NCBI GenBank assembly: GCA_937873395.1
Contig: CALMYH010000002.1
Coordinates: 1,961-65,960, forward strand
DNA from: an uncultured Burkholderiales bacterium
GTDB lineage: Bacteria; Pseudomonadota; Gammaproteobacteria; Burkholderiales; Burkholderiaceae_C
Direction of reading: 5' to 3'
Length of the DNA stretch: 64,000 nt
Part shown: piece by piece, positions 2,836-18,471 of the stretch
How positions within the stretch are numbered: the first letter of the stretch is position 1
Layout of the letters: each line of letters starts with the position of its first letter
Translations under genes and position numbers: made by a program
The notes under the pieces: model-generated
Databases searched by the model: none
The model's input: the letters and a program-made list of their open reading frames with translations, nothing else
What the model was told of the DNA's origin: nothing

Positions 2836-2863
2836 AGTTGGAGGCAGACTTGGCCTTTTCAAG
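2836..2863 (-). promoter_or_regulatory. Sigma-32-like promoter for grpE
   Basis: The minus strand reads CTTGAAA, then 13 nt, then CTCCAACT, which matches 6 of 8 positions of CCCCATNT. Confidence 0.45.
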
Positions 2864-2939
2864 GGCGATGGGAAAAAAATCGGGGTGCGGGCTGGGGCCA
2901 GGATGGAGACAATCAGGCCTTTTGGCAGGTGGTATCCCC

Positions 2940-3791
2940 ATGAAACTGTTTCGACACGGCCCCGCGGGGGCGGAGCGTCCCGGTCTGGTGGACGCTCAGG
3001 GTGTGTGGCGAGATCTGTCCGGTGTGCTGGACGATCTGCGGCCCGACACGCTGAACCTGGATTCTATGAGCAGGCTGGCCGCGCTTGACACCGGGCGGTT
3101 GCCGGTCCTGCCTGCCGGTACCCGGCTGGGTCCGTGCGTCGGCGGCGTGGGCAACCTGGTCTGCATTGGTCTGAACTACGCCGACCACGCGGCCGAAGCC
3201 GGGCTGAAGCCGCCAGGCCAGCCCATCGTCTTCAACAAACACAACGGCGCCATTGGAGGTCCGAACGACGATATCTGGCTGGCGCCGGGCTCACAGAAGC
3301 TGGACTGGGAGGTCGAACTGGGCGTGGTGATCGGCTCAAAGGCGTTCCATGTCAGTGAGGCGGACGCCCTGCGCCATGTGGCCGGCTACTGCCTGGCCAA
3401 TGACGTGTCCGAGCGTGCCTATCAGATTGAATATGAAGGCCAGTGGACCAAGGGAAAGAGTTATCCCACCCATTGCCCCATCGGCCCCTGGCTGGTGACA
3501 CCCGACGAACTCGGCGATCCGCAGGCGGTGGACCTCTGGCTGGAGGTCAACGGTCAGCGCCGGCAGACGGGCAACACCCGGACCATGATCTTCGGGGTGG
3601 CGCAGATTGTCAGCTACCTGAGCCGGTTCATGGCCTTGCAGCCGGGCGACCTGATACTCACCGGCACCCCGCCGGGCGTGGGCATGGGCATGAAGCCACC
3701 GCTCTACCTGAGGGCCGGTGATGTCGTCACGCTCGGAGGCAGCGGACTGGGTGAGCAGCGTCAGCGTGTGGTCCCCACCCCCGCGGTCTGA
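2940..3791 (+). CDS. Fumarylacetoacetate hydrolase (FAH) family protein
   Basis: The FAH C-terminal domain pattern is present ([26 protein letters not shown]). The start is set at MKLFRHG. Confidence 0.88.
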
Positions 3792-4351: not shown

Positions 4352-4897
4352 TCAGGACAGGTAGACTTTGCGCAGCAGGCGGATCAGGGTCTGCAATTCA
4401 GAGGCCGACAAGCGGTCGGCGACATCCGCCTCCAACTGGGAGGCTGTGGCCTCGGCGTCTTTCTGCAGGGCCTGGCCGTGCGCCGTGAGGTGCAGCCCCT
4501 GGGCGCGCCGGTCGGTGGGGTGCGGACGCCGTTCGATCAGCCCGCGCTTTTCCAGCGACTTGATCATGCCCACCAGGTTGGGTGGCAGGATGTCGAGCGC
4601 GGCACAGATCTGGCGCGACGTCACGCCCGGGTTGTGGGCGATGACACTGAGCACCGAGAAATCCACCGGTCGCAGGCCATAGGGCGCCATGCGCTGCAAA
4701 AAGACCGAGATGACCGCCAGCGCGGTGCGGCGCGCGTTGTAGCCCAGCAGGGTCTCGAGGTAGGAAGTGTCAACCCTTTCGCACGTTCCGGCAGGTGCCG
4801 CGGTCACCTTGGCGTTCCCGCTGGTACCGGCGAGCTCGGTTCGGGGTTTGGTCGAACGGCTCGATGGACTCAGTCTGGACGTGGCGGTGGACGGCAT
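4352..4897 (-). CDS. MarR family transcriptional regulator
   Basis: The MarR wHTH core is present (FSVLSVIAHNPGVTSRQICAALDILPPNLVGMIKSLEKRGLIERRPHPTDRR). It lies 12 nt downstream of the Crp/Fnr gene on the same strand. Confidence 0.85.
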   Translation of the reverse strand: MPSTATSRLSPSSRSTKPRTELAGTSGNAKVTAAPAGTCERVDTSYLETLLGYNARRTALAVISVFLQRMAPYGLRPVDFSVLSVIAHNPGVTSRQICAALDILPPNLVGMIKSLEKRGLIERRPHPTDRRAQGLHLTAHGQALQKDAEATASQLEADVADRLSASELQTLIRLLRKVYLS

Positions 4898-4909: not shown

Positions 4910-5638
4910 TCACCCGCTGAAGGACGGCCTGGTTGCCGGGGCTGATGTGTCCGGTTGTCTCAGCAGGGTGATGCGTCCATAGCCCAGCCGCACCATGCCT
5001 TCCTTTTCCAGTCGGTTGAGTTCGGCGTTGACTTTCGGTCTCGACGCGTTGAGGGACTGGGCAAACTCCTGCTGGGTCAGGGTGATGGTGATGTGTCCGA
5101 AACGGTCTGGCTGCCCGTTGAAATGGGCGAGTCGCTGCAGTCTCTGGTAGATCCGGGAGCGCAGCGAAGGCAGCAGGTCCGATTCCATCAGCTCGAACAT
5201 CTCGGCCACCCGGGTGGCCAGGCTTCGGATGATGCCCAAGGCCAGATCGGGCTCGTTGTGCAACGTCTTAATCAGGGCCTGCCGGGAGATTTCGAGTGTC
5301 TGGCCTGCTTCTTCACAGACCATGTCGGTGGGGAAGGGCGCTCCGGCCAAGGCCGATGGAACGCCATAGAGTTCGCCGGGGGTGATGCGTCGCAGAAAGA
5401 GCGAATGCCCGTCCACGCTGTTGAGCAGCACCTTGTATTGCCCGCTCAGGCACACGCTGACACTCTCCATCCGCTGGCCGCTTCGCGTCAGTGTATCGCC
5501 CGCTTTCCAGGACCTTCGCAGGCCCACCGCTTCCAGTGTGTGAACCATGGCCTGGTCCAGCACGAAACGATCCAGCGCACGCTTGTGCAGCCAGTGGGAG
5601 GACAGCACATCTTCGGGTAAACCATAGATTGGTGTCAT
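4910..5638 (-). CDS. Crp/Fnr family transcriptional regulator
   Basis: It has a cNMP-binding-like beta-barrel followed by a C-terminal HTH (TQQEFAQSLNASRPKVNAELNRLEKEGMV). It is divergent from the ABC/BMC operon. Confidence 0.85.
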   Translation of the reverse strand: MTPIYGLPEDVLSSHWLHKRALDRFVLDQAMVHTLEAVGLRRSWKAGDTLTRSGQRMESVSVCLSGQYKVLLNSVDGHSLFLRRITPGELYGVPSALAGAPFPTDMVCEEAGQTLEISRQALIKTLHNEPDLALGIIRSLATRVAEMFELMESDLLPSLRSRIYQRLQRLAHFNGQPDRFGHITITLTQQEFAQSLNASRPKVNAELNRLEKEGMVRLGYGRITLLRQPDTSAPATRPSFSG

Positions 5639-5730
5639 CCCCTAGATTGTTACCTGAGAAACAGTTTTGTTCAAGGCATACACCGAATATGCGTCTGCGG
5701 GCTTGAGCTCGATCAACAGGAGACATCAAC

Positions 5731-6726
5731 GTGATCAAGAAACTTGCAATGCGCTGGGCGTCCATGGCCACCATCACCACACTCGCAGCGGCTGCCGCAC
5801 AGGCCCAGCCAGTGGTGCGTTTCCAAGACTATCCCGGCACCGGAAACTTGCTGGTGCGCGTGGCGCAGGCGCAGGGTTTTTGTGAGCAGGCGGGCATCCG
5901 TTGCGAACTGCGCGCCATTCCCGCCGCGCCGCTGGGCATGCAGACCATGTTGTCGGGCGACATCGAAGTGTCGTTTGGTCCGGCCGAGGTGGTGGTTGCC
6001 GCCCTGGCGCGCAAGGCGCCCATCAAAGTCATCGGGGCGGGCTATGTGGACCCGGTCTTCTTTATCGCAGCGGGCATGAAGACCGAGTTGCCGACCGAGG
6101 CCGAAGGCTATCCCGGTGTGGTGAAGTCGTTCAAGGGCAAAAAAATCGGTGTCACCCAGCGCGGCTCGGGCGCCGAGTTCCAGCTGATCGACATGCTGGC
6201 CGACGCCGGGCTGACCGCCAATGACGTGACCATCGTTGCTGTCGGCGCGCCCAATACGGCGTTCCCAGCGCTGACCCAGGGGCAGGTGGATCTGATCATG
6301 ACGTTTCCCCCCGCTGACGGCATGTGCGAAGTACTCAAGGCCTGCCGCGTGGTGATCGACCCGCGCAAAGGCCAGGGCCCCAAAAGCATCCTCGACTCCC
6401 GGGGTGGCGCGGGCGCCATGGCGGTGAAAGCCGACTGGGCAGCGGCCAACCCGGCGTTGGTGGAGAGCGTTCGCAAGATGCTGGCCTTGTCAGATGCCTT
6501 TGTGTCCAACCCGGCCAATTTCGACAGAACGCTGGAGGTGCTGCGCAAGACCTTTGGCCTGCAGTTGCCCAACGCCGATCAGATCGCCGAGGTTTCGTTC
6601 CGGAATTCGATAGGCAACTTCAAGGCCCAGGGAACGGTGCCCGCCATGCAGTCGGTGGCCGACACGATGTTTCAGAACAAGCTGGTGCCCGTGCGCGTGG
6701 ACATGGCCCCCGCCGTGCTGCCTTGA
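5731..6726 (+). CDS. ABC transporter periplasmic substrate-binding protein, NMT1/SsuA/TauA-like
   Basis: A GTG start follows an AGGAGA RBS. There is a signal peptide ending AAAAQAQP. The fold pattern is typical of nitrate/sulfonate/taurine-family binding proteins. Confidence 0.8.
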   Translation: MIKKLAMRWASMATITTLAAAAAQAQPVVRFQDYPGTGNLLVRVAQAQGFCEQAGIRCELRAIPAAPLGMQTMLSGDIEVSFGPAEVVVAALARKAPIKVIGAGYVDPVFFIAAGMKTELPTEAEGYPGVVKSFKGKKIGVTQRGSGAEFQLIDMLADAGLTANDVTIVAVGAPNTAFPALTQGQVDLIMTFPPADGMCEVLKACRVVIDPRKGQGPKSILDSRGGAGAMAVKADWAAANPALVESVRKMLALSDAFVSNPANFDRTLEVLRKTFGLQLPNADQIAEVSFRNSIGNFKAQGTVPAMQSVADTMFQNKLVPVRVDMAPAVLP

Positions 6727-6765
6727 TGCACACGTCACGGACGCAGGAAACCGCCCAGACGCGCC

Positions 6766-7530
6766 ATGATTGACGCCCAACGCATCGATTTGAGCTTCGA
6801 CGGCACCAACCTGGTGTTGCAAGGGGTGGACCTGCATGTCAAAGCCGGCGAGTTTGTGGCGCTGGCGGGCCCCAGTGGTTGCGGCAAGACGACCTTGCTC
6901 AACCTCTGTGCCGGGCTGGTGCCGCTGCCTGCGGGCCAGCACCTGAAGGTGGCCGGCCAGCCGCCCGCGCTGGGCAGTCACGGTGTGGCCTACATGTTGG
7001 CCAGAGACAGCCTGTTTCCCTGGCTCAGCGCACTGGATAACGCCGCCTTCGGGCTGAAGGTACGCGGCATGCCGGTGGCCCAGGCGCGCGAGCGCTCGGC
7101 CGTGATGCTCAAGCGCGTGGGTCTGGGTGGTGCTGAAAACAAGTTGCCCAAAGAGCTCTCGCACGGTATGCGCCAGCGGGTGGCGCTGGCGCGCACCTTT
7201 GCCATGCCCTCGCCACTGCTGCTCATGGACGAACCCTTTGGCGCGCTCGACGCGCAGACCAAGCTGCAGCTGCAGGACCTGTTGCTGCAACTGTGCCAGG
7301 AGGGAGAGCGCACTGTGCTGTTCGTGACCCACGACCTGTCGGAAGCGGTGGCCCTGGCCGATCGGGTGGTGGTGATGTCGTCCAGGCCCGGACGAATCGT
7401 GGCCGACGTGCCGGTGCCACTGCCGCGCCCGCGATCGATTCGCGCCCTGCAGACCAGCGACGACTTCCACCACACCTACACCCGGGTGTGGAAACATCTT
7501 GAAGAAGGATGGGTGCACCATGAAGGCTGA
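6766..7530 (+). CDS. ABC transporter ATP-binding protein (NitT/TauT family, TauB/SsuB-like)
   Basis: It carries Walker A GPSGCGKTT, signature LSHGMRQRVALAR and Walker B LLLMDEPF. Confidence 0.9.
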   Translation: MIDAQRIDLSFDGTNLVLQGVDLHVKAGEFVALAGPSGCGKTTLLNLCAGLVPLPAGQHLKVAGQPPALGSHGVAYMLARDSLFPWLSALDNAAFGLKVRGMPVAQARERSAVMLKRVGLGGAENKLPKELSHGMRQRVALARTFAMPSPLLLMDEPFGALDAQTKLQLQDLLLQLCQEGERTVLFVTHDLSEAVALADRVVVMSSRPGRIVADVPVPLPRPRSIRALQTSDDFHHTYTRVWKHLEEGWVHHEG

Positions 7531-8275
7531 GATGCTTCGCACACTGGCGCAACATGCGCTGTTCGTGACCCTGGTGCTCGGCGCCTGGGAGTGGGGTGCC
7601 AGGGCCGGCCTGATCGACCCGAGCTTTGTCGGCAGCCCGTTGGGCATTGCCCGCTTCACGCTGGAAAACTTCACCAACGCCCGGCTCTGGGGTGACCTGG
7701 TCTGGACGCTCACGGCGGTGTTTGTGTCCTTCGGCATTGGTTCCATGGCTGCCATCGCTGCCGGTCTGGCCTTTGTGACCTGGCCGCGGCTGGACGAGTT
7801 CTGTGAGCCCTACATCGCGGCGCTGAACGTGCTGCCCCGCATTGCGCTGGTGCCCCTTTTCATTCTCTGGTTCGGTCTGGGCCTGGGGTCGAAGATCGCC
7901 ATGGGCGTGTCGCTGACGTTCTTCATCGTGCTGTCCACCACCGTGGCGGGCATCCGCGGTGTCAGCCAGGACCACATCACGCTCACGCGCACGCTGGGCG
8001 CCAGCAGCCGCCAGATGTTCTTCTGGGTCACCTTGCCCGGCGCGGTGCCGGTGCTGTTCTCCGGTCTTCGCCTGGGCCTGATCTACGCCTTTCTGGGCGT
8101 GGTGGGGGCCGAGGTGATTGCATCCGAGCGCGGCCTGGGCCAGCAACTGGCCTACCTGGCCGCGATCTTCAACGTCAACGGTGTGTGGTCGCTGCTGTTC
8201 GACCTTGCAGTGATCGGCGTTCTGATCATGAAGCTCATGAGCTGGCTCGAACGTCGACTGCTGCACTGGCAATAA
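7520..8275 (+). CDS. ABC transporter permease (TauC/SsuC-like)
   Basis: It is a multi-pass membrane protein with the BPD-transporter EAA-like region. The ATG at 7520 overlaps the ATPase stop. The ORF track offers a TTG at 7499 as an alternative start. Confidence 0.85.
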   Translation: MKAEMLRTLAQHALFVTLVLGAWEWGARAGLIDPSFVGSPLGIARFTLENFTNARLWGDLVWTLTAVFVSFGIGSMAAIAAGLAFVTWPRLDEFCEPYIAALNVLPRIALVPLFILWFGLGLGSKIAMGVSLTFFIVLSTTVAGIRGVSQDHITLTRTLGASSRQMFFWVTLPGAVPVLFSGLRLGLIYAFLGVVGAEVIASERGLGQQLAYLAAIFNVNGVWSLLFDLAVIGVLIMKLMSWLERRLLHWQ

Positions 8276-8303
8276 GGCCCCCTTTTTCATCAGGAGATTC
8301 GAT

Positions 8304-9353
8304 ATGAAATTCCGTCACATCCAGGTGGACCCGATGACGCCCACCATCGGCGGCATGGTCAGCGGCGTGGACCTGAACAACACGCGGTCCGAAGATGTCT
8401 ACGAAGAGATCAAGCAGGCCCTGTGGCAGTACGGCGTGGTGTTCTTCCGCAAGCAGGCGCTCAAGCCCGAGGCCTATATTCGCCTGGGGAAAAACTTCGG
8501 CGAAATGGAGCAGCACGAGTTCTTCCCTCATGTCGAAGGGCATCCACAGATCCAGCTGATTTCGCACCAGGGCAACGAGGCACCCGAAACCGACCGCTGG
8601 CACACCGACGTGACCTTCCGCAAGAAGCCGAACATGGTGTCGATTCTGCGCATCACCGACCTGCCACCGGCCGGTGGCGACACCATGTGGATGCACGCCG
8701 GTGCGGCGTTCGACGCGCTCAACCCCGGCCTGCAGCAGATGCTCGAAGGCCTGCAGGCCGATCACGACCTGCCCTGGCATTTCCGCCGCATCAATGTGCA
8801 CGAGCGGCTGGCGCAGCGCGCCTCGGCCAAGAGTGGGATGCTGGTGACCGCCAATGCACAGGAGTGCAAGATGATCGAGAACACGCCCACGGTGACGCAC
8901 CCGGCGGTGATCACGCACCCCTATAACGGCCGCAAAATCCTGTTCGTCAACTCGATCTGGACCAAGCGCCTGCTGGGCATGCACATGGACCTGTCCGAAG
9001 CGCTGCTCAACATGCTCTATGAGTGGGTCAAGAAGCCTGAGTTTATGGTGCGCTTCCGCTGGGAAAAGGACTCGGTGGCCATGTGGGATAACTGCGCCAC
9101 GCAGCACTACGCGGTGTTCGACTACGCGCCGCACTACCGGGCCGGCCAGCGCATGACCTGCGGCAGCTTCGTGCCCTCCTTGCAGCCGACATCGGCCAGC
9201 AGCGCGGCTCAACCTGCGGCCCTGCGCCAGCTGATCGACACGACCCGCCTGCAGGCGGCCAGCCCACAGGAGCGGCAGGCTGTGGACGCGATCTTCAGTG
9301 CCCTCGAGGGTGTTGATCTCAATGCCGTGGCCAACGCCGCGCAGGGCCGTTGA
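8304..9353 (+). CDS. TauD/TfdA-family Fe(II)/2-oxoglutarate-dependent dioxygenase with a ~57-aa C-terminal extension
   Basis: The HxD motif is in RWHTDVTF, the GGDTMW motif is present, and the distal His is in WDNCATQHYA. An AGGAGA RBS precedes the start. The tail after ...MTCGSFVPS has no counterpart in canonical ~280-aa TauD. Confidence 0.9.
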   Translation: MKFRHIQVDPMTPTIGGMVSGVDLNNTRSEDVYEEIKQALWQYGVVFFRKQALKPEAYIRLGKNFGEMEQHEFFPHVEGHPQIQLISHQGNEAPETDRWHTDVTFRKKPNMVSILRITDLPPAGGDTMWMHAGAAFDALNPGLQQMLEGLQADHDLPWHFRRINVHERLAQRASAKSGMLVTANAQECKMIENTPTVTHPAVITHPYNGRKILFVNSIWTKRLLGMHMDLSEALLNMLYEWVKKPEFMVRFRWEKDSVAMWDNCATQHYAVFDYAPHYRAGQRMTCGSFVPSLQPTSASSAAQPAALRQLIDTTRLQAASPQERQAVDAIFSALEGVDLNAVANAAQGR

Positions 9354-9372
9354 AGCCGGAGCCGATGCTGCC

Positions 9373-10869
9373 ATGACCGAACTCAATCCCATTGCCGTGG
9401 GCGACAACGACCTGGCCGCCGTGCAGGAGGCGCGGCAGTTGCTGGCCCAGGCACGACCGGCGGCCGATGCGCTGGCCGGGTGGACGCCCGAGCACGCCAA
9501 GGCGGTGGCCAAGCGGGTGGCGGCCGCCCTGTTGCCGCGCGCCGAGTTCTACGCCGAGTGGGCGGTACGCGAAACCCGTATCGGCAAGGTGGCCGACAAG
9601 GTGGCCAAGAACCATTTCGCCTGCACCCTTACGCCCAGCGCCTGGGACCAGGTGGCCCTGGGCGGTGTGCGCCGCGTTGATGCGCTGCGCATCGTGGAGA
9701 TCGGCCGCCCGGCCGGTGTGGTGGTGGGGCTGTCGAACTCCACCTCGCCGGTGGCCACCATTCTGTTCAAGACCCTGATGTGCCTGATGACGCGCAACGC
9801 TCTGGTGGTGTCGCCGCACCCGGTGGCTCTGGGCTGTTGCACGGCGGTGGTGCGCGAGCTGCAGGCCGCCATCGAGACCGCAGGTGGTCCGACGAATGCG
9901 GTGCAGATACTGACCCGGCCGACGGTCGAGGCCACGGGTGCCCTCATGCGCGACACCCGCACCGACGTGATCCTCGCGACGGGCGGCACGCCCATGGTAC
10001 GCGCCGCCTACGGCTCGGGCAACCCGGCCATCGGGGTGGGTTCGGGCAACGTACCGATCTATGTGGACACCAGCGCCGACTTGAACGATGCGGCGCAGAA
10101 GGTGGTGCTGGCCAAGAACTTCGACCACGGCAGTCCTTGCTCGGCGCCGTCGGTTCTGATGCTGCATGCCGGTATCGCGCAAGCCATGCTGCAAGCGCTG
10201 ACCGCTGCCGGTGCGCATGTGTGCAGCGAGCTCGAGGCCCGGCAGATCCAGGATTACGCTTTTCCGGGTGGCAGGTTCAACGCCAAGGTGGTGGGACGAC
10301 CGGCACACGAAATTGCCAGCGCTGCAGGGGTGACGGTGAGCGCGACCTGCGAGGCGCTTGTGTGCCCCATGGCCCGACCGCAGGCGGGCCACCCCTTGCT
10401 GCGCGAGAAGCTCTCGCCCATTTTGGGCTGTGTGGTGGTGCCGGACATGGCGCAGGCCGTGGACGTGGCCCGCCTGATGCTGCAGAACAGCGGGGGTGGC
10501 CACACCTCGGGCATCTACACCGCCGACGCCACCCAGGCCGTGGCCTGGGGCGCTGCGCTCGATTACTACCGCGTGGTCGTCAACGGCAACACGGTGCTCG
10601 ACAGCACCGGCGACAACACCGGACTGCCCTATACCTTCACCATCGGCACCGGCTACGCCGGCAAGAGTTCGGTGGACTGCAATGTCGGCCCTGAGCTGCT
10701 GGTGAACTGGAAACGGGTGGCCTTTCCGCTGCCCGGTGGCTGGACCGGCGCCATGGCCTCGGGGGCGGCGACTGCCGCTGCCGGTGCCGCTGAGCCGGCC
10801 ATCCTCACACCCGAGCTCTCCGCCATGGTCCTGCGCATCGTGCAGGAAGAACTCGAACACATCCGCTGA
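9373..10869 (+). CDS. CoA-acylating aldehyde dehydrogenase (EutE/PduP-like) with a C-terminal amphipathic tail
   Basis: It has the ALDH fold, with the catalytic Cys context NFDHGSPCSAPSV resembling acetylating ALDHs. The start is set at MTELNP. The C-terminus is a Gly/Ala linker followed by LTPELSAMVLRIVQEELEHIR. Confidence 0.85.
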   Translation: MTELNPIAVGDNDLAAVQEARQLLAQARPAADALAGWTPEHAKAVAKRVAAALLPRAEFYAEWAVRETRIGKVADKVAKNHFACTLTPSAWDQVALGGVRRVDALRIVEIGRPAGVVVGLSNSTSPVATILFKTLMCLMTRNALVVSPHPVALGCCTAVVRELQAAIETAGGPTNAVQILTRPTVEATGALMRDTRTDVILATGGTPMVRAAYGSGNPAIGVGSGNVPIYVDTSADLNDAAQKVVLAKNFDHGSPCSAPSVLMLHAGIAQAMLQALTAAGAHVCSELEARQIQDYAFPGGRFNAKVVGRPAHEIASAAGVTVSATCEALVCPMARPQAGHPLLREKLSPILGCVVVPDMAQAVDVARLMLQNSGGGHTSGIYTADATQAVAWGAALDYYRVVVNGNTVLDSTGDNTGLPYTFTIGTGYAGKSSVDCNVGPELLVNWKRVAFPLPGGWTGAMASGAATAAAGAAEPAILTPELSAMVLRIVQEELEHIR

Positions 10870-10878
10870 AAGCCTGTC

Positions 10879-11493
10879 ATGTCCACTTTGCGCAGCTACA
10901 TCTTTCTGGACCGCTTGCAGCCACAACTGATGTGTTTGCTGGGGTCGACCGCTCGCGGCTTCTTGCCGCGCCACAACGACGCGGCCATGGTCATTGAAGT
11001 GGCACCCGGCATGGACATCGAGTGGCTGACCGACGTGGCCCTGAAGCACGACAACGTCAAACCCGGCAACCTGGTGGTGGAGCGGCAGTTCGGCTACCTG
11101 GAGTTTCACGGCCAGTCCTCGTCATCGGTGAAGTCGGCCGGCGCAGCGGTGCTGGAGGCCATGGGCGTGAGCGAAAAAAGCGCACTCAAGCCCGAGATCC
11201 TGGCGTCCAAGGTGATCGACCGGGTGGACGGCTACCACGCCTTCCTGATCAACCGCAGCAAGTCCGGCAGCATGCTCTTACCCGGCGAGTCGCTCTACAT
11301 CATGGAGATGACCACATCGTCGTACGCGCTGCTGGTGGCCAACGAAGCCGAAAAGGCCGCCAACGTCAAACTCATCGACTGCCGCTTCATGGGGCCTGCC
11401 GGACGTCTGTACCTCTCGGGGGATGCCTCGGACGTGCGCGCCGCCGCTGCGGTGGCCGAGGCTGTGATCCGCGACGCGAGAGGTGGCGTATGA
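10879..11493 (+). CDS. BMC-T shell protein (tandem BMC domains), paralog 1
   Basis: There are two BMC-like repeats. The first contains DVALKHDNVKPG...FGYLEFHGQSSSSVKSAGAAV. The second contains ANEAEKAANVKLID...GRLYLSGDASDVRAAAAVAEA. Confidence 0.85.
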   Translation: MSTLRSYIFLDRLQPQLMCLLGSTARGFLPRHNDAAMVIEVAPGMDIEWLTDVALKHDNVKPGNLVVERQFGYLEFHGQSSSSVKSAGAAVLEAMGVSEKSALKPEILASKVIDRVDGYHAFLINRSKSGSMLLPGESLYIMEMTTSSYALLVANEAEKAANVKLIDCRFMGPAGRLYLSGDASDVRAAAAVAEAVIRDARGGV

Positions 11494-12413
11494 GCGCCGA
11501 GGCCTTGCGCGAGCAGATCCGGGCTCAGGTGCGTACCGCTGTGGCGGCTCACACCGCCCCTGACCAGGGCGCCGCTGTGGCGGCCCTGATGCAGCGCTTT
11601 GAAGCCGGTTACGCCACCGCCAACGCCGAGGCCATCGTGGCCTGCTTTGCGCCCGATGTGGTTTGGGCCCTGCCCGACGCGCGCGTGCTCAACGGGCGCG
11701 CGGCCTGCCTGGCGTTCCTGAAGGAACGCTTTGCCAGCCCCGCAGGCCCGCAATTTGCCGACTCGCGCATGCATGTGCTGGGCCGGACCGTGGTGCAAAA
11801 CTACAAGGTCAGCCTGCCCCTGCCCGGCGGCCAGACGGTCACGCTGGACGGCGCCGACGTGTACCAGATCCGTGACGGGCTGATTGCGCGCAAAGACGCG
11901 TACTGGAAACAGATCGGTGCGGGCAAGCCGGGAACAGCCGCCGCACCGGCGGCCCCGGGCGCGGCATCCGTCGGCGTGGTCGTGCCCTTGCGCGTGGGCA
12001 CAGCCGCTGGCATCCAGGCGCTGAGCGAGCTGTACAAGCGGCTGGCCGCGAGCCCTGCGCTGCTGCAGGCGGCCCAGAACGGTGTGTTGCGCTTTGACTT
12101 GCGCGTGGACGAAGGACATGCGCTGGGCACGTCGGCCATGGCCGCCACCACCGCCATCGGCCCGGCTGCCTGCTGTGAGTCGTGCAAGGCAGGCAAATCC
12201 TGTGATTGCAAAGGCGACCACTGCGATCTGCATGAACACAAGACCGCCGAGGCCGTGCCCGAGCTTCACGGCGTGATCGGCGAGAAATTGCTCAGAACCC
12301 TGCCGCCAGGCGTGAAAACCGTTCGGCTGCATCCCAAGGCGGTCATGACGCCCTTGGGCAAGGATGCACTGCGCAAGCGCGGCATCACCATTGACCGAGG
12401 AGCCCAGCCATGA
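11490..12413 (+). CDS. Uncharacterised BMC-locus protein: N-terminal SnoaL/NTF2-like domain, Pro/Ala linker, Cys/His-rich cluster and a short C-terminal domain
   Basis: ATGA overlaps occur at both ends (11490/11493 and 12410/12413). The NTF2-like segment includes FAPDVVW...DVYQIRDGLIARKDAYW. The cluster reads CCESCKAGKSCDCKGDHCDLHEH. The start lies inside the longer ORF 11022..12413. Confidence 0.7.
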   Translation: MSAEALREQIRAQVRTAVAAHTAPDQGAAVAALMQRFEAGYATANAEAIVACFAPDVVWALPDARVLNGRAACLAFLKERFASPAGPQFADSRMHVLGRTVVQNYKVSLPLPGGQTVTLDGADVYQIRDGLIARKDAYWKQIGAGKPGTAAAPAAPGAASVGVVVPLRVGTAAGIQALSELYKRLAASPALLQAAQNGVLRFDLRVDEGHALGTSAMAATTAIGPAACCESCKAGKSCDCKGDHCDLHEHKTAEAVPELHGVIGEKLLRTLPPGVKTVRLHPKAVMTPLGKDALRKRGITIDRGAQP

Positions 12414-12679
12414 AGACCGGAACCGTGATTGGCCGCATCGTGGCCAGCAAACGCCTGCCCGAGCTGCCTGCGGGTGCCTTGCTGGAGGTGCAGCTGGACT
12501 ACCCCAAAGATGTGGTGGTTTGCTACGACCCATTGGGCTGCGGCATCGGTGAGCGCGTAATGATCACCATCGGCGCGCCCGCGGTCTGGTGGTTTGCGCC
12601 CGCACAGCAGCGCGTGGTGGCCGATGCGCTGATCATCGCTTCGCTCGACAACTACGACACGCCCACGCCCATGCGCTAA
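12410..12679 (+). CDS. BMC-P vertex protein (EutN/CcmL family pentamer)
   Basis: It is 89 aa and begins MKTGTVIGRIVASKRLPELPAGALLEVQ, which fits the EutN/CcmL beta-barrel pattern. Confidence 0.85.
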   Translation: MKTGTVIGRIVASKRLPELPAGALLEVQLDYPKDVVVCYDPLGCGIGERVMITIGAPAVWWFAPAQQRVVADALIIASLDNYDTPTPMR

Positions 12680-12745
12680 GGCTGAAGCCGCACGTTTTTC
12701 CTTTCCCCAACCCGTTGTTTTTCAACTCTTTATCAGGAGACTCTC

Positions 12746-13018
12746 ATGTCACAAGCCATCGGAATGATCGAGACCAAAGGTTATGTCAGCGCCTTCGCTG
12801 CAGCGGACGCCATGGTCAAAGCCGCCAACGTCAACATCGTGGGCAAGAAGGAAGTGGGCGGAGGCCTGGTGGCCATCATCGTCTCGGGCGATGTGGGCGC
12901 GGTCAAGGCTGCCACAGAGGCGGGGGCGGAAGCGGCCGGGGCGATTGGCGAAGTGGTGTCGTGCCACGTCATTCCCCGTCCGCATGCCGACGTGCAGAAG
13001 GCCTTTGACGGCAAGTGA
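12746..13018 (+). CDS. BMC-H hexameric shell protein (PduA/EutM/CcmK type)
   Basis: It has a canonical single BMC domain: [26 protein letters not shown]...[23 protein letters not shown]...HVIPRPH. The RBS AGGAGA is strong. Confidence 0.95.
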
Positions 13019-13056
13019 GCTGTTTCACCCGATAGGACCGTCTGGAAGGAGGCCGC

Positions 13057-13722
13057 ATGGCCACACGCAAACTCCCTGCAGCGTCGGCGCGTCCGGCGGC
13101 CGAGCTGCGGGTCTATCTGACGTTGACCGATCTGCAGGCCCAGTTTTCCTCGTGGATGAGTTCTCCGCTGGGTGCGCGCGGTTATGTCGCGATGCAGGGT
13201 ACCCACTCGCTGTTGGTGGAGATCGCCCCCGGGCTTTCGATCCAGCGGGTGATCGACCTGGCGCTCAAGGCCGAGCCCACCCTGGAGCCTGGCATTCTGG
13301 CGGTGGAGCGGCAGTTTGGCATTCTGGAGCTGCACAGCCAGGACCGCGCTGCGCTGGAGCGCGGGGGACAGGCCATTCTGGACTGGCTGGGTGCCCGGCC
13401 CCAGGACCAGCTGCGCCCGCAACTGCTCTACAGCGACATTCTGGACAACGTGACCGACCAGCACGCGGTGCTGATGAACCGAACCCGCCAGGCCAACATG
13501 GTGCTGCCCGGACAGAACCTGTTGCTGATGGAGGTGGCGCCGGCCCTGTTTGGTGCCCACATGGCCAACGAGGCCGAGAAGGTGGCACCCGATGTGACGC
13601 TGGTGGAGTGCAGCATGATCGGTGCCAGCGGTCGGATGTACCTCAGCGGCAATATGGCCTCGCTGGAAAAGGCCAAGGCCCACGTGGAGCAGTTGCTGCA
13701 GCAGATCCCGGGGCGGGGATAG
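13057..13722 (+). CDS. BMC-T shell protein (tandem BMC domains), paralog 2
   Basis: It has the same architecture as 10879..11493 (VERQFGILELH, ANEAEKVAPDVTLVE...GRMYLSGNMASLEKAKAHVE). It carries an extra ~16-aa N-terminal extension. Confidence 0.85.
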   Translation: MATRKLPAASARPAAELRVYLTLTDLQAQFSSWMSSPLGARGYVAMQGTHSLLVEIAPGLSIQRVIDLALKAEPTLEPGILAVERQFGILELHSQDRAALERGGQAILDWLGARPQDQLRPQLLYSDILDNVTDQHAVLMNRTRQANMVLPGQNLLLMEVAPALFGAHMANEAEKVAPDVTLVECSMIGASGRMYLSGNMASLEKAKAHVEQLLQQIPGRG

Positions 13723-13728
13723 CGTCCC

Positions 13729-14523
13729 TTGAGTGTGCACGCCGCCGCGTTGCCGTGGTCCATGCCTTTATTGTGCACGGCACTGGCGGTGTCGCTGGGT
13801 GCCGGGTTTGTGCGCGGCTTTGCCGGTTTTGGCTACTCGGCCCTGGTGGTTCTGGGTCTGTCTCTGCTGGTCTCGCCCGCCACCGTGGTGCCGGCGGTGC
13901 TGATGCTGGAGGTGATTGCCAGCGCCGGACTGCTTCGAGGCAGCTGGCCGCATGTCGATCGCAGCTGGCTGCGGGCGCTGTCGCTGGGCACCCTGATGGT
14001 GACCCCGCTGGGCATGGTCTGCCTGGCCTGGCTGCCCGAAGGCGTGGCGCGGCTGGGGGTAGGCTGCACGGTCCTGTTGTGTGCTTGCTTTCTTCGTGCC
14101 GCAGGTCACCGTTCCCCGTCCGACAGCGCCGCCTTGCGGGCCGTTGCCGGCGTCGGGGCGGGCTGGCTCAACGGCCTGGCGTCCAGCGGAGGTGTGTGGG
14201 CCGCACTGTGGATGACCGGCGCGGGCGTTCCAGCGGCAGCGATGCGCGCGACCATGGACGTCTTTCTGTTCTCGGGCGGTGTTTACGCCCTGCTGTGGGC
14301 CGCCGCCCTGTCGCTCGGGCAGGACAGCGATCGCCTGCTGAGTTCGGCCACCCTGGGATGGGTCGGTCTGCTGCTGCCCACCATGTGGCTGGGCATGGTC
14401 TGGGGCCGGCGTTGCGTGGCGGCTGTCAACCCCGGCCGGCTGCGCCATCTGGTGCTGAACCTGCTGATCGCGATGGCCAGTGTGGGCGTGTTGCGGGCGC
14501 TGCTGGGGCTGCAGAAGCTGTGA
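13729..14523 (+). CDS. TauE/SafE (TSUP) family sulfite/anion exporter
   Basis: It is a polytopic membrane protein with the glycine-rich motif GAGFVRGFAGFGYS typical of TSUP/TauE. The start codon is uncertain: TTG at 13729, GTG at 13735 or ATG at 13762. Confidence 0.78.
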   Translation: MSVHAAALPWSMPLLCTALAVSLGAGFVRGFAGFGYSALVVLGLSLLVSPATVVPAVLMLEVIASAGLLRGSWPHVDRSWLRALSLGTLMVTPLGMVCLAWLPEGVARLGVGCTVLLCACFLRAAGHRSPSDSAALRAVAGVGAGWLNGLASSGGVWAALWMTGAGVPAAAMRATMDVFLFSGGVYALLWAAALSLGQDSDRLLSSATLGWVGLLLPTMWLGMVWGRRCVAAVNPGRLRHLVLNLLIAMASVGVLRALLGLQKL

Positions 14524-14549: not shown

Positions 14550-16274
14550 TCAGCCGCGGTCGAGCGTGTCCTGCATCATAGACAGGCGCATGTCGAACTC
14601 GGGCCAGACCCAGCGCCAGAAGCTGGTCTGAGCGGTTTGCCAGCGCGGAGCAACGGCGCCGCCGGCAGCGCCGATGCGCGCCCATGCCCATGCCATGAGC
14701 AGCATCGCCACGGCGCGCAGGAAGTCGTCGGCCAGCCAGTGCGGCAGGTCCGCGGGAGCGTTCTTGGCGGTGGCGCGGGGCAGCAGTCTGGCTTGAAGAA
14801 AGGCGATGAACCGGGTGAGTTCGGTCTTTGCCCGCATGGCTTGTTCGTCATTGCCCAGCTCGGTGCCGAGGTCGGCCAGCAGTTGGCGCAGAGCGGCGCC
14901 GCCGTCGGGCAGGGTCTTGCGCAGCAGCAGGTCGATGGCCTGGATCTCGTTGGTGCCCTCGTAGATCATGGCCACGCGCGCGTCGCGAACCACCTGCTCG
15001 ATGCCCCACTCGCGCACATAGCCGTGGCCACCGAACACCTGCAGGCAGGCGCTGGCGCCATGGAAAGCCTGATCGGTCCAGGCGGCCTTGAGCACGGGCG
15101 TGACCAGCGCGCACCAGCGGCCGGCGGTTTCGCGCCGTTGTGCGTCTGGGTGGTGCTTGATGATGTCCAGCTCGACTGCGGTGCGGTACGCGACCACGCG
15201 GCCAGCGTCGATCCAGGCGCGCTGGGTATCGAGGATGCGGCGCATGGCCGGATGCGCCTCGATGAGATCCGCTTCGCCCGCTTTGGCGTTGCCACCGGGG
15301 GCGCGCATCTGGCGCCGTTCTTTGGCGTAGGTGTCTGCCTTCTGCCAGGCGGCTTCGAGCAGGCCGATGCCCTGCAGGCCCACATGCAGGCGGGCGGCGT
15401 TCATCATCACGAACATCGCGTTCAGGCCTTTGCCCGGCTCGCCGACGATCCAGCCCGGTGCCTCGTCGAAGCGCATGACGCAGGTGGGGCTGCCATGCAG
15501 GCCCATCTTTTCCTCGATGCGTTCGCAGAACACAGCGCTGCGCGTGCTGTCTTCATAAAACTTGGGCACCAGGAACAGCGACAGGCCCTTGGGTCCGGGC
15601 GGACTGTCGGGCAGGCGGGCCAGCACCAGGTGCACGATGTTGTCGGTCAGGTCGTGTTCACCACCGGAGATGAAGATCTTGGTGCCGGACAGCGCGTAGC
15701 GGCCGTCGGCCTGCGGAACCGCCTTGGTGCGGCACAGGCCGAGGTCGGAGCCGGCGTGTGGCTCGGTCAGGCACATGGTGGCCAGCCATTCGCCGGTGGC
15801 GACCTTCTCCAGGTAGGTGGCCTTCAGTTCGTCGGACGCGTGGTGCTTGATGCACTCGTAGGCGCCGTGCAGCAGGCCGGGCGCCATGGTCCAGCCGTGA
15901 TTGGCAGCGCTGAGCATCTCGTACAGCATGGCCTCCAGCACGGCGGGCAGGCCCTGGCCACCGTCTTCCGTGGCACAGGCCAGCGAAGGCCAGCCCGCCT
16001 GCCAGAAGGCTTGATAGGCGTCACGGAAGCCCGGTGGCATGGTGACAGCGCCGCCCCTGAGATGCGCACCGATTTCGTCACCGTCTCGGTTGAGCGGGGC
16101 GACCACTTCGGCCACGAACTTGCCCGACTCCTCCAGCACCTGCTGCATCAGATCGGCGTCGACCTCGGCCCCGTGACCCGAATACTGGGGCAGGGTCTGC
16201 AACTGGGTCGGTGCCTGCAGTGCCTGCTGCAGGATGAAGAACATGTCGTCGGTGCGGGGCTGAAAGTGGTTCAC
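14550..16274 (-). CDS. Long-type acyl-CoA dehydrogenase
   Basis: ACAD motifs are present (CLTEPHAGSDLG, IFISGGEHD, GGHGYVREWGIEQVVRDARVAMIYEGTNEIQ). I chose the GTG at 16274, with the ATG at 16244 as an alternative. The 902-aa ORF is an artefactual upstream read-through across neighbouring genes. Confidence 0.9.
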   Translation of the reverse strand: MNHFQPRTDDMFFILQQALQAPTQLQTLPQYSGHGAEVDADLMQQVLEESGKFVAEVVAPLNRDGDEIGAHLRGGAVTMPPGFRDAYQAFWQAGWPSLACATEDGGQGLPAVLEAMLYEMLSAANHGWTMAPGLLHGAYECIKHHASDELKATYLEKVATGEWLATMCLTEPHAGSDLGLCRTKAVPQADGRYALSGTKIFISGGEHDLTDNIVHLVLARLPDSPPGPKGLSLFLVPKFYEDSTRSAVFCERIEEKMGLHGSPTCVMRFDEAPGWIVGEPGKGLNAMFVMMNAARLHVGLQGIGLLEAAWQKADTYAKERRQMRAPGGNAKAGEADLIEAHPAMRRILDTQRAWIDAGRVVAYRTAVELDIIKHHPDAQRRETAGRWCALVTPVLKAAWTDQAFHGASACLQVFGGHGYVREWGIEQVVRDARVAMIYEGTNEIQAIDLLLRKTLPDGGAALRQLLADLGTELGNDEQAMRAKTELTRFIAFLQARLLPRATAKNAPADLPHWLADDFLRAVAMLLMAWAWARIGAAGGAVAPRWQTAQTSFWRWVWPEFDMRLSMMQDTLDRG

Positions 16275-16303
16275 GGCGGGAGCTTCCGAAAGCGGAGGAG
16301 GGG

Positions 16304-16984
16304 TCAGCGAGGCTTGGCCTCGGCGGCCTTGTCGGGTGAACCCTCCAGGCCGGCCAGCAGCGCCTGGCTGTTGCCGGGGATGACCATCTGGAACTTGCTG
16401 TCGACGGTGGTGTAGTCGAAGTAGCCCATGCGCGCGATGGGCCGGATCTTGAGGACGTCGACCAGGCCGTTGCTGTCGATGTATTGGTCGTCGATGTGGA
16501 TCGCCACCACACGACCGAATACCACGTCCACCGTGCCCATGGGCGGGGTGCCCGGAAAGCGCAGGGTGTTGAGGTATTCGCACTCGAACTGGATGGGTGA
16601 TCCCTTGACGCGCTTGGGCCGAACCCGCCGGCTGTCGAGCTTTTCCAGTCCGGCGCGTTCGAACTCGTCGACGCCGAAGGGCAGTTCTTCGGCGCTGATG
16701 TTGACCGCTTCGCGCAGCTCCCAGGTGGCCATGTTCCAGACGAACTGGCCCATCTGCTCGGCGTTGCGCACCGAGTCCTTGCGCTCCCCCTGGGTGGTCT
16801 GGTTCGCGCTGAACATGACGATCGGCGGGTCGAAGGTCACGTTCTGGAACTGGCTGTAGGGCGCGAGGTTGTCTCGGCCCTGCGCGTCCACGGTGGAGAT
16901 CCAGCCGATGGGGCGAGGCACCACGCACGACTTGAACGGGTCGTGCGGCAGTCCATGGGGTGTCTTGCCGGGTTCGTAGTACAT
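16304..16984 (-). CDS. Flavin reductase-like (FMN-binding split-barrel) protein
   Basis: The segment FKSCVVPRPIGWISTVDAQGRDNLAPYSQF is a typical flavin reductase domain. The start is at MYYEPG. Confidence 0.85.
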   Translation of the reverse strand: MYYEPGKTPHGLPHDPFKSCVVPRPIGWISTVDAQGRDNLAPYSQFQNVTFDPPIVMFSANQTTQGERKDSVRNAEQMGQFVWNMATWELREAVNISAEELPFGVDEFERAGLEKLDSRRVRPKRVKGSPIQFECEYLNTLRFPGTPPMGTVDVVFGRVVAIHIDDQYIDSNGLVDVLKIRPIARMGYFDYTTVDSKFQMVIPGNSQALLAGLEGSPDKAAEAKPR

Positions 16985-17013
16985 GGGCTCGCCTTCGGAA
17001 CTGGGGGTCAGGG

Positions 17014-17997: not shown

Positions 17998-18051
17998 GCG
18001 AGTCTCCTTTGGGGGTGGTGATGGTGGTTCGGGCTCTGGCGGCCCTTGCGC

Positions 18052-18471
18052 TCAAGTACACAAAGCCTTGATGTCCTCGGGCACCACGATGGCTTTGATG
18101 CGGTCCGGGTCCTCGGGGTGGCGCATGCAGAACGCGCGGGTTTCCGTGCCTTCGCACAGCACGGTGTCCCCCCGTTTGACCACGTGTTTGTGGATGAACA
18201 CCTTCTCGCGCCATTCGATGACGCTGGTGTGGATTTGCAGCCGCTCGCCGTAGGTGGCGGGCTTCATGAACTTCGTGTTGATTTCCAGCAGCGGCGTGCC
18301 GATGATGCCGGTGGTCTTGACCAGCTCGCGCCAGGGCGGCACGCCGCATTGAACGAAGAAGTTCAGCGACGAGGCGTCCATCCATTTCGAGAAATTGGGA
18401 AAGAAGACGATGCCGGCCGGGTCGCAATCGCCGAACATCACCTCGACTTCATACACAACGGTTTTGCTCAT
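18052..18471 (-). CDS. Hotdog-fold acyl-CoA thioesterase (4HBT/YbgC-like)
   Basis: The segment VEVMFGDCDPAGIVFFPNF has the typical catalytic Asp context. The start is at MSKTVVYE. Confidence 0.85.
   Translation of the reverse strand: MSKTVVYEVEVMFGDCDPAGIVFFPNFSKWMDASSLNFFVQCGVPPWRELVKTTGIIGTPLLEINTKFMKPATYGERLQIHTSVIEWREKVFIHKHVVKRGDTVLCEGTETRAFCMRHPEDPDRIKAIVVPEDIKALCT

Follow-up and report, generated by a model that had tools for sequence, protein, structure and literature searches.

The 64,000-nucleotide stretch of DNA analyzed here (the window; positions 1,961 to 65,960 of contig CALMYH010000002.1, assembly GCA_937873395.1) comes from an uncultured Burkholderiales bacterium. It carries, at positions 5731-14523, eleven open reading frames (ORFs) that all run in one direction on the + strand (Table 1). 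They encode an ATP-binding cassette (ABC) importer, a TauD/TfdA-family Fe(II)/2-oxoglutarate (2OG) dioxygenase, a coenzyme A (CoA)-acylating aldehyde dehydrogenase (ALDH), a set of bacterial microcompartment (BMC) shell proteins interrupted by a protein that we call X, and a TauE/SafE-family membrane protein. We find that this gene set belongs to a recurrent kind of locus in which a dioxygenase probably takes the place of the usual first enzymes of a known microcompartment type, RMM1.

The original prediction described eleven co-directional, tightly packed genes, and every ORF in the ORF list and translations of the window lies where it was placed. The several ATGA overlaps it reported are in fact two (T1/X at 11490-11493 and X/P at 12410-12413), and the remaining gaps measure 6 to 66 nt. 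Profile assignments are from Pfam unless stated otherwise; NCBIfam models and sequence matches to the PDB were also used. The family searches with hidden Markov models that had been proposed as a check placed PF00936 on T1 and BMC-H, PF03319 on BMC-P, and PF02668, PF00171, PF01925 and PF12680 on their respective ORFs. The Shine-Dalgarno-like motif AGGAG precedes the genes for the periplasmic substrate-binding protein (SBP), TauD, BMC-H and T2, and third-position GC is 0.76-0.86 in every operon gene, a range that befits genuine coding sequence in a genome of 65% GC. The permease may truly start at ATG 7520 or 7532, and the ALDH start is, from the sequence, most likely ATG 9373 and not GTG 9298, which overlaps the TauD gene. 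Since the identical gene order was found again in dozens of genomes, it is not a product of chance.

Table 1. Genes, candidate regulatory sites and protein segments of the operon and its divergent regulator (positions in the window unless given as residues).
Feature	Position	Strand	Basis or note
Crp/Fnr-family regulator, divergent	4910-5638	-	Pfam cNMP-binding domain and HTH_Crp_2
Dyad-symmetric element TTGTTACCTGAGAAACA	5647-5663		Regulator/operon intergenic region (5639-5730); candidate regulator site
FNR/CRP-type box TTGAGCTCGATCAA, dyad-symmetric	5703-5716		~15 nt upstream of the SBP start codon; candidate site
SBP, periplasmic, NMT1/SsuA-like	5731-6726	+	NMT1 3e-14
ABC transporter ATPase	6766-7530	+	ABC_tran 9e-26
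ABC transporter permease	7499-8275	+	BPD_transp_1 2e-24
TauD/TfdA-family Fe(II)/2OG dioxygenase	8304-9353	+	PF02668 9e-57, 193 bits (cut-off 27)
Dioxygenase C-terminal extension, residues 307-349, after a disordered linker (~289-306)	9222-9350	+	Candidate encapsulation peptide
CoA-acylating ALDH (EutE/AdhE type)	9373-10869	+	Aldedh PF00171 6e-22
ALDH C-terminal amphipathic helix LTPELSAMVLRIVQEELEHIR	10804-10866	+	Candidate encapsulation peptide
BMC-Tdp T1, 204 aa	10879-11493	+	PF00936 1.5e-8, single domain found
Protein X, 307 aa	11490-12413	+	SnoaL_2 PF12680 2e-16, N-terminal 140 residues only
Parts of protein X, in order	residues 3-20; 27-142; 163-206; 228-250; 257-302		N-terminal helix; SnoaL/NTF2-like; small alpha/beta domain; Cys-rich insert; C-terminal domain (motif AVxTPLxxDxxRxxGI)
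BMC-P pentamer (vertex) protein	12410-12679	+	EutN_CcmL PF03319 3.4e-13
BMC-H hexamer protein	12746-13018	+	BMC PF00936 1.4e-26
BMC-Tdp T2, 221 aa	13057-13722	+	PDB and NCBIfam CcmP matches; no Pfam match
TauE/SafE-family membrane protein, putative sulfite/anion exporter	13729-14523	+	PF01925 2e-20, 73.9 bits (cut-off 32.6)

The shell proteins all find their best structural matches in the RMM of Mycobacterium smegmatis. T1 is closest, among solved structures, to MSM0275 (PDB 5l39, 4e-71; NCBIfam CcmP 1e-64) and T2 matches MSM0271 (PDB 5suh, 2e-69; NCBIfam CcmP 3e-51), followed for both by CcmP, CsoS1D and BMC-T proteins of Haliangium. T2 has no Pfam match at E<=0.01. Its 37% identity to T1, together with the MSM0271 and CcmP matches, indicates that T1 and T2 are both double-stacking BMC-Tdp proteins. 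BMC-P is best matched by MSM0273 (5l37, 1e-12) and BMC-H, whose translation contains KAAN and PRPH motifs, has MSM0272 (5l38, 2e-33) as its best natural match. The full shell set that had been claimed (BMC-T, an unknown protein, BMC-P, BMC-H and a second BMC-T) is thus present, its last member recognized through the PDB and NCBIfam and not through Pfam. PF00936 BMC-H and PF03319 BMC-P genes are clustered, as in a metabolosome, and the combination of one BMC-H, a single BMC-P and two different BMC-Tdp proteins is that of an RMM1 shell. The position of protein X between T1 and P, with the ALDH directly upstream of T1, also agrees with RMM1. By these comparisons, the shell proteins, ALDH and protein X are RMM1 orthologues.

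The locus kind is already catalogued. The 2021 catalogue of Sutter (PMC8217296, Supplementary Data 2) lists 140 loci of the RMM1/AAUM type, assigned to aminoacetone utilization. Its trees label the 204-aa rmmT1 of Limnohabitans II-D5 (H663_01235) as 'bmcType=RMM1 (main)', and likewise entries from Limnohabitans MMS-10A-160 and 63ED37-2, Polaromonas C04, and Ramlibacter 43961 (UC35_13405 rmmT1 and UC35_13425 rmmT2) (PMC8217296). The Ramlibacter solisilvae locus that we retrieved (L001) has the gene order of the window, and its T1, at 205 aa, is as long as the rmmT1 listed in the catalogue; the spacing of the two locus tags, rmmT1 and rmmT2, fits T1-X-P-H-T2 if tags step by five. Classification against a published catalogue, another proposed check, therefore finds this kind of locus filed under RMM1, and not in an 'incomplete core' (MIC) class as had been suggested. 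The MIC1 class, which its entries from Hydrogenophaga, Methylibium and Comamonadaceae had suggested, was rejected on the grounds of one BMC-H with two BMC-Tdp, the C-terminal helix of the ALDH, the lack of pfam02866, and the catalogue labels. Neither taurine nor TauD, pfam02668, pfam01925 or pfam12680 appears in the catalogue text and its 18 supplementary files (PMC8217296); a catalogue type 'TAU' was rejected because taurine and TauD appear nowhere in them.

A scan with a T1 alignment across one genome per bacterial species returned at least 495 stretches with relatives, of which the best 80 loci were kept. Their content was determined by tblastn and ORF clustering, with a TauD counted if it lay within 4 kb upstream of T1. 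The reference was a canonical AAUM locus from Dongia (L085), verified with Pfam, which encodes, in this order, an ABC importer, a short-chain dehydrogenase, AraC, APH, Aminotran_3, ALDH, T1, X, P, H and T2. Its APH, aminotransferase and dehydrogenase served as tblastn queries; the window itself is outside that database. We found a TauD-family gene directly upstream of the ALDH, and no APH kinase or class-III aminotransferase, in 46 of the 80 loci. AAUM enzymes without TauD occurred in 22 (21 with APH and aminotransferase, one with the aminotransferase only), the upstream region was truncated in six, and neither set lay within 10 kb in the last six. TauD and AAUM enzymes never occurred together (0/80). 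The short-chain dehydrogenase behaved in the same way, so that all three L085 enzymes were absent by tblastn from the TauD-type loci fetched and found in the 22 of AAUM type. Pfam likewise detected no APH, class-III aminotransferase or short-chain dehydrogenase in the 11 operon proteins and the 16 flanking ORFs scanned (159-26239). The window's dioxygenase occupies the position that the kinase and the phospholyase-type aminotransferase hold in L085. The co-occurrence survey called for in the original prediction accordingly yields TauD-ALDH-shell linkage in 46 of 80 species-level genomes, with a conserved core of TauD-ALDH-T-X-P-H-T around which importers and regulators vary.

In a simple neighbor-joining tree of concatenated ALDH, T1 and T2, drawn with no support values, TauD-type loci stand apart from AAUM-type loci and fall into two clades, a large one of Beta- and Alphaproteobacteria and a small one with Variovorax, Comamonas and Alcanivorax. 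The dioxygenase-ALDH junction persists even where dioxygenase identity drops to 45-47%, across three proteobacterial classes. Carriers include Limnohabitans, Hydrogenophaga, Rhodoferax, Rubrivivax, Ramlibacter, Variovorax, Comamonas, Chachezhania (which we take to belong to Rhodobacterales), Rhodospirillaceae metagenome-assembled genomes (MAGs), one of them labeled 'Spongia_Bin9', and an Alcanivorax MAG. Cultured carriers are Limnohabitans planktonicus II-D5, Ramlibacter solisilvae, Variovorax sp. PBL-E5 and Chachezhania sediminis. Among the best 80 of the at least 495 stretches, the closest whole-locus relative is a MAG labeled Hydrogenophaga (L033), and T1 is up to 98% identical to many Limnohabitans T1s (93-98% across Limnohabitans-type loci). 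The window is therefore assigned to a member of the Comamonadaceae.

These patterns bear on the simplest alternative, namely that the locus is an ordinary aminoacetone or aminopropanol microcompartment of the AAUM/RMM1 type lying beside an unrelated tauABCD-like cassette for sulfur scavenging. The catalogue label RMM1 would suit it, as would the occurrence of Crp-SBP-ABC-permease-dioxygenase cassettes on their own and the sulfur-acquisition role ascribed to most sulfonate-cleaving Fe/2OG dioxygenases (PMC12951627). We nevertheless consider it highly improbable: the APH kinase, class-III aminotransferase and short-chain dehydrogenase occur in none of the TauD-type loci examined, the dioxygenase-ALDH junction persists at 45% dioxygenase identity in three proteobacterial classes, the ALDH and shell genes branch by dioxygenase type, and a tail specific to shell-linked dioxygenases (described below) speaks against an unrelated neighbor.

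The window's locus is like RMM1/AAUM (M. smegmatis MSMEG_0271-0276) in its order ALDH-T1-X-P-H-T2, in the C-terminal helix of the ALDH, in having protein X, and in having no phosphotransacylase or alcohol dehydrogenase. It differs in carrying a tailed TauD-family dioxygenase in place of the APH kinase, phospholyase and short-chain dehydrogenase, in its importer, in a protein X that often bears a SnoaL domain, and in its separate ALDH and shell branches. Several side observations came from the same survey. In loci with neither front end, a DAO-type FAD oxidoreductase, a DUF1989 protein or a large NAD-glutamate dehydrogenase lies upstream of the ALDH. Single-locus front ends were noted at L057 6894-8363, L061 4126-5376, L060 7667-8323 and L080 3376-8190. 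A third recurrent front end of RMM1-type loci was dismissed, as each candidate (DAO-type, DUF1989, NAD-glutamate dehydrogenase) occurs in one locus only. Two labels are taxonomically odd: an 'Akkermansia muciniphila' MAG (L025) has a Limnohabitans-like T1 97% identical to that of the window, and a 'Bifidobacterium breve' MAG (L079) has an AAUM-type locus with a T1 61% identical. Both are most likely mis-binned or mislabeled contigs.

Both enzymes of the core end in a linker followed by a short helix, which is the architecture of encapsulation peptides. The ALDH was predicted to be CoA-acylating, and this is upheld by its match to the acetylating ALDH structure 5j78 (8e-85), in which FDHGSPC aligns with FDYGTIC and the catalytic Cys is conserved, and by NCBIfam, whose top models for it are of the acetylating EutE/AdhE type (340 bits for acetylating ALDH, 282 bits for SauS, each under its cut-off). 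Its tail consists of a linker and the helix ELSAMVLRIVQEELEHIR, whose hydrophobic moment of 0.51 is at the top of the protein's own distribution. AAUM-type ALDHs share this linker and helix (..EIRRIILEELR..).

The dioxygenase of the window is ~65 residues longer than Escherichia coli TauD. An alignment of 18 relatives displays a poorly conserved linker of variable length and then a conserved helix (..SPQERQAVDAIFSALEGVDLNAV.. in the window). The motif E[RKQ]xA[VMI]x[AT][VIL]FxA[LI] recurs in 45 of the 48 dioxygenases that are linked to a shell, and variant helices stand at that place in the other three. The AlphaFold2 model (mean predicted local distance difference test score 83, core ~90) has helices at residues 307-317, 321-334 and 339-348 after a low-confidence linker. 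The tail is missing from all five shell-less relatives compared (P0016, P0018, P0053, P0090 and P0100; 47-72% identical to the window's dioxygenase), and the neighborhoods of these five contain no BMC genes. One of them, in locus L003 (P0016), retains Crp-SBP-ABC-permease-dioxygenase without ALDH or shell, and the P0018 contig likewise retains SBP-ABC-permease-dioxygenase. Because the tail is present in shell-linked copies and absent from the five shell-less relatives, the dioxygenase is probably an encapsulated cargo. At the sequence level, then, a C-terminal linker and helix mark both the dioxygenase and the ALDH as candidates for encapsulation. The tail-less cassettes (L003 7394-10990 and the P0018 contig) lie near a class-V aminotransferase (PF00266), which could dispose of the aldehyde in another way, outside any compartment, for instance by turning glyoxylate into glycine.

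A dioxygenase that stays in the cytoplasm would also be compatible with some of these data. The ALDH alone would then occupy the shell and scavenge aldehyde diffusing inward, and the tail would serve oligomerization or regulation, or dock the enzyme to the outer face of the shell. O2, Fe(II) and 2OG are easier to supply outside a shell, the amphipathicity of the tail is modest, encapsulation is a prediction from sequence, and the shell-less cassettes suggest that the enzyme does not need a compartment. We judge this arrangement clearly improbable, given that the tail is confined to shell-linked copies (48 with, 5 shell-less without), that it has the linker and short helix of encapsulation peptides, and that aldehyde made outside the shell defeats the usual purpose of a metabolosome.

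What an encapsulated dioxygenase would act on can be approached through its active site. As claimed, it is a TauD/TfdA-family Fe(II)/2OG enzyme with an HxD...H triad and a 2OG-binding Arg. It aligns with the E. coli TauD structure (2e-60) over the Fe, 2OG and sulfonate ligands: H100, D102, H268 and R279 of the window correspond to H99, D101, H255 (Fe) and R266 (2OG). These positions, together with H70 and R270 (E. coli numbering), are invariant in the alignment of 18 clade relatives, and V102 is conserved in a comparison with E. coli TauD only. Three positions that we take to bind the taurine amine in E. coli TauD have changed (Y73F, N95T and S158H), and E. coli N97 is replaced by an Arg that is invariant in the clade. 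H70 and R270 are sulfonate binders in E. coli TauD (PMC12951627). The sulfonate reading is based on the retention of these two residues, and the preference for a compound other than taurine on the altered amine-binding residues; our best guess for the substrate is a small (C2-C3) organosulfonate other than taurine. Aldehyde formation is expected by analogy with the chemistry of the family, and sulfite would be released with it. Taurine dioxygenases are the enzyme's best matches by structure and by profile, and its closest sequence clusters contain hundreds of metagenome sequences. No SqoD or sulfoquinovose dioxygenase chain is named among its 32 PDB sequence matches.

A substrate other than a sulfonate, handled by the same architecture, is an unlikely but serious alternative. 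Candidates are sulfate esters of the AtsK/Rv3406 type (such as alkyl sulfates or choline-O-sulfate), phosphonates, ether-linked carboxylates of the TfdA/RdpA type, and N-alkyl compounds; sulfate, phosphate, a phenol or an amine would then leave with the aldehyde in place of sulfite. The match to RdpA-type enzymes (9e-54) nearly equals that to TauD, with AtsK further off (2e-34). The enzyme lies under the TauD equivalog cut-off, its amine-binding residues are replaced, partly by aromatic ones, the N97 position holds its invariant Arg, and TauE is absent from most loci. An Arg at the R270 position presumably binds an anionic group across the whole enzyme group and hence does not single out sulfonates. 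Furthermore, regulators of the AraC type with a DJ-1/PfpI domain, which often respond to quaternary amines, flank two of the loci (L002 and L005). For a sulfonate speak the invariance of H70 and R270 together, the taurine dioxygenases as best matches, an SBP nearest to the SsuA-family sulfonate binders, and a TauE/SafE gene that is kept beside the shell genes in three diverged relatives.

The importer is informative at the family level. An ABC importer is present, as predicted, and every one of its proteins falls below the TauA, TauB or TauC equivalog cut-off. The SBP scores 71.6 bits on SsuA_fam (cut-off 163.5) and 27.3 on TauA (cut-off 304), with a weak PDB match to SsuA (2x26). TauB is the best NCBIfam model for the ATPase (202 bits, cut-off 357), and the permease is under cut-off for SaoP, TauC and SsuC (TauC 91, cut-off 342). 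'TauABC-like' is thus a family-level description, because transporter and dioxygenase both remain below the NCBI TauABCD equivalog cut-offs. Like E. coli TauABCD, the window has an NMT1-type ABC importer adjoining a PF02668 dioxygenase with the Fe, 2OG and sulfonate ligands kept. Unlike it, the four proteins are under the NCBIfam cut-offs, the amine-binding residues have changed, the regulator here is of the Crp family, and there is coupling to an ALDH and a shell. This coupling points to use of the carbon and not to sulfur scavenging alone.

Nor is the ABC importer a fixed part of the system. Most Betaproteobacteria have an SsuA-like ABC importer (in two lineages), the alphaproteobacterial group has a tripartite ATP-independent periplasmic (TRAP) transporter, DctPQM, and Variovorax has a transporter of the major facilitator superfamily. 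All three kinds fit a small organic anion. Among Limnohabitans loci, the SBP is ~80% identical to that of the window in one importer lineage and ~48% in the other (L007, L014, L015, L017-L020 and L024 versus L008-L012, L021 and L022), beside dioxygenases that are ~90% identical. The transporter module thus seems to have been swapped independently of enzyme and shell.

TauE is a lineage-specific addition outside the conserved core that has been kept at its position, and it is represented by three sequences in the window's sub-lineage. Synteny with the genome-scan relatives is bounded by the regulator and the T2 stop codon; TauE starts 6 nt past that stop and is followed by a convergent gene. 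We rejected the idea that it is unique to the window's genome, since two of the three closest non-window homologues with neighborhoods fetched, both metagenomic, lie directly after T2 (L088 and L090). L088 reads MarR-Crp-SBP-ABC-permease-TauD-ALDH-T1-SnoaL~X-P-H-T2-TauE, and L090 is a shorter contig. TauE is 64-67% identical to its counterparts there, and the other L088 genes are 78-99% identical to those of the window. No NCBIfam model matches TauE, and its homologues are named just 'uncharacterized membrane protein YfcA'. The claim of a TauE/SafE exporter in the operon stands as a family assignment; as a pointer to sulfite it loses force, the gene being missing from all 80 loci. Its position lends mild support to a sulfite or anion link in the window's lineage and none elsewhere.

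Protein X ties the TauD-type and AAUM-type loci together. A core of ~160 residues, comprising the N-terminal helix, the alpha/beta domain, a variable linker and the C-terminal motif domain, also lies between T1 and P in AAUM loci. This link was made via X-like ORFs (cluster 17) in the AAUM loci of the genome scan; a profile search with X was swamped by close freshwater homologues among the best 120 of its 512 matches. In the window and most Limnohabitans loci, SnoaL is fused N-terminally to X. In alphaproteobacterial X it is inserted in the middle of the protein (L005 13193-14029), and X of Ramlibacter and Variovorax lacks it. The two arrangements look like independent fusions of one domain type to X, and the two distinct fusion points suggest a functional tie of the SnoaL domain with the TauD-type variant. 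The Cys-rich loop CCESCKAGKSCDCKGDHCDLHEH (six Cys and one His; ~12171-12239, residues 228-250) is nearly invariant in Limnohabitans-type X, has two Cys in Ramlibacter, and is absent from Variovorax and alphaproteobacterial X. It may be a metal or Fe-S site. An AlphaFold model of X is confident only for the SnoaL and C-terminal domains; a fold search with it returned ketosteroid-isomerase and polyketide-cyclase folds for the SnoaL part and nothing for the C-terminal domain. We infer that X is an organizing or accessory cargo protein.

The operon is probably controlled by the divergent Crp-family regulator, whose gene adjoins the cassette in betaproteobacterial relatives whether shell genes are present or not. 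No N-terminal Cys cluster was seen in its sequence. Both intergenic dyads are, from their sequence, candidate regulatory sites. Limnohabitans (ATTGTCACATCAGAAACAAT), Ramlibacter (TTGTCAGACATACGACAA) and the shell-less L003 have counterparts of TTGTTACCTGAGAAACA in the corresponding position, and the position of the FNR/CRP-type box is taken by TTGACGGTGATCAA in the Limnohabitans loci. Consensus scans of the window detected no promoter and no meaningful terminator, and Rfam and tRNA scans of it were empty.

We lean, with some confidence, towards reading the locus as an RMM1-type microcompartment in which the aminopropanol kinase and phospholyase have been replaced by a TauD-family dioxygenase that would cleave a likely organosulfonate and be encapsulated together with the ALDH. 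Behind this reading stand the gene content, the RMM orthology of the shell, the conserved linkage of TauD, ALDH and shell genes, the fact that TauD and the AAUM enzymes exclude each other, the tails specific to shell-linked copies, and the conserved catalytic and anion-binding residues. A small anionic substrate, likely a C2-C3 organosulfonate that is not taurine, would enter via the SsuA-like ABC system. Within the shell, to which both enzymes would be recruited by their C-terminal linker-plus-helix peptides, the dioxygenase would hydroxylate the carbon adjoining the sulfonate with O2 and 2OG, giving succinate and CO2 as by-products. The resulting alpha-hydroxysulfonate would fall apart into aldehyde and sulfite, and the co-encapsulated ALDH would turn the aldehyde at once into acyl-CoA and NADH. 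Sulfite would exit the shell and, in the window's lineage, be exported by TauE/SafE. The two BMC-Tdp proteins are candidates for the entry of 2OG and O2 and the exit of succinate, CO2 and sulfite. More speculatively, aldehyde and bisulfite may recombine to alpha-hydroxysulfonate adducts, and quick capture by the ALDH would then pull the reaction forward.

Several observations weigh against this proposal. Neither a phosphotransacylase nor an alcohol dehydrogenase is found among the 11 operon genes or the scanned flanking genes, so that the core is incomplete; recycling enzymes are likewise neither listed in the catalogue's RMM1 text (PMC8217296) nor encoded in the canonical AAUM locus L085. No enzyme for CoA or NAD+ recycling is encoded in the locus, and 2OG, O2 and succinate would need to cross the shell. 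The dioxygenase scores 254.8 bits on the NCBI TauD equivalog model (cut-off 313), in addition to its changed amine-binding positions. The hydrophobic moment of its tail is a moderate 0.39 (~95th percentile of its own protein), the shell-less relatives compared number just five, and the tree is of the simplest kind. The sulfite link is weak outside the window's lineage because TauE is absent from all 80 species-representative relatives. Shells, encapsulation and activity are predictions from sequence comparison.

The claim of a microcompartment based on a dioxygenase is supported by the linkage in 46 of 80 loci and by the shell-specific C-terminal helix, with the sulfonate substrate still at the level of inference. 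We know of no characterized metabolosome that holds a 2OG-dependent oxygenase. A literature search, with most subscription journals outside its coverage, found no paper tying TauD-family enzymes or an Fe(II)/2OG dioxygenase cargo to microcompartments. The claim of a new metabolosome has to be qualified in that the locus kind is already catalogued as RMM1. An O2-dependent signature enzyme is not itself novel. In the ARO microcompartment of Actinobacteria (Doron, Sutter and Kerfeld 2023, PMC10470539), the first enzyme is an O2-dependent dioxygenase, with an aldehyde dehydrogenase acting on the reactive intermediate; 'first aerobic oxygenase microcompartment' would thus be too strong. ARO differs from the window in having a ring-opening oxygenase (pfam02900) that acts on 2-aminophenol or catechol and is not 2OG-dependent, and in its very divergent shell, restricted to Actinobacteria. 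No ARO protein was found to carry an encapsulation peptide (PMC8217296).

Two other routes offer comparisons. The glycyl-radical C-S lyase route of Bilophila and Desulfovibrio is an analogy only, in that a C2 sulfonate yields an aldehyde and sulfite; this taurine/isethionate route is anaerobic and oxygen-sensitive, and two papers on it mention microcompartments (PMC6453916, PMC6386719). Pfam finds no glycyl-radical enzyme in the 11 operon proteins. SqoD is an Fe(II)/2OG dioxygenase whose C-S cleavage releases sulfite and frees the carbon for assimilation, with the sulfonate bound without Arg or His (PMC12951627). Unlike the window's dioxygenase, it is not tied to a microcompartment in that paper.

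We would give an even chance to the broader view that these loci form a new functional metabolosome class within the catalogued RMM1, one that is aerobic and in which an encapsulated Fe(II)/2OG dioxygenase cleaves an organosulfonate C-S bond and the carbon is passed on as acyl-CoA. The RMM1 shell, ALDH and X would then be a chassis for swapped front ends with their own encapsulation peptides. Limnohabitans is a prominent genus of freshwater bacterioplankton. If the view is true, the class would be widespread in freshwater Limnohabitans, other Comamonadaceae, and marine and sponge-associated Alphaproteobacteria, and the catalogued RMM1/AAUM type would split into functionally different organelles. 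Sulfur acquisition is the presumed role of most sulfonate-cleaving Fe/2OG dioxygenases (PMC12951627); a dioxygenase and an acylating ALDH in one compartment suggest carbon assimilation from organosulfonates. A 2OG oxygenase in a shell would need O2, Fe(II) and 2OG inside and would release succinate and CO2, which makes the permeability of the shell, and what the two gated BMC-Tdp proteins do, matters of direct interest. A natural swap of signature enzymes on a fixed shell and ALDH chassis would also be useful for engineering.

The genes around the operon were annotated as well. Upstream lie genes for DnaK (159-2093, -), GrpE (2210-2941, -), a fumarylacetoacetate-hydrolase family protein (2838-3791, +) and a MarR regulator (4352-4897, -), whose pairing with the Crp gene recurs upstream in the TauE-bearing relative L088. 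Downstream, the operon is bounded by a convergent acyl-CoA dehydrogenase gene. Positions 14550-26239 hold a beta-oxidation-like cluster on the opposite strand, to which this gene belongs together with those for flavin reductase, TctC receptor, 4HBT thioesterase, thiolase, AMP-dependent ligase and enoyl-CoA hydratase, and, beyond the cluster, genes for an Amidohydro_2 protein and a Rieske VanA-like oxygenase. At 14550-17258, the listed ORF of 902 aa extends too far; its dehydrogenase domains begin near residue 373.

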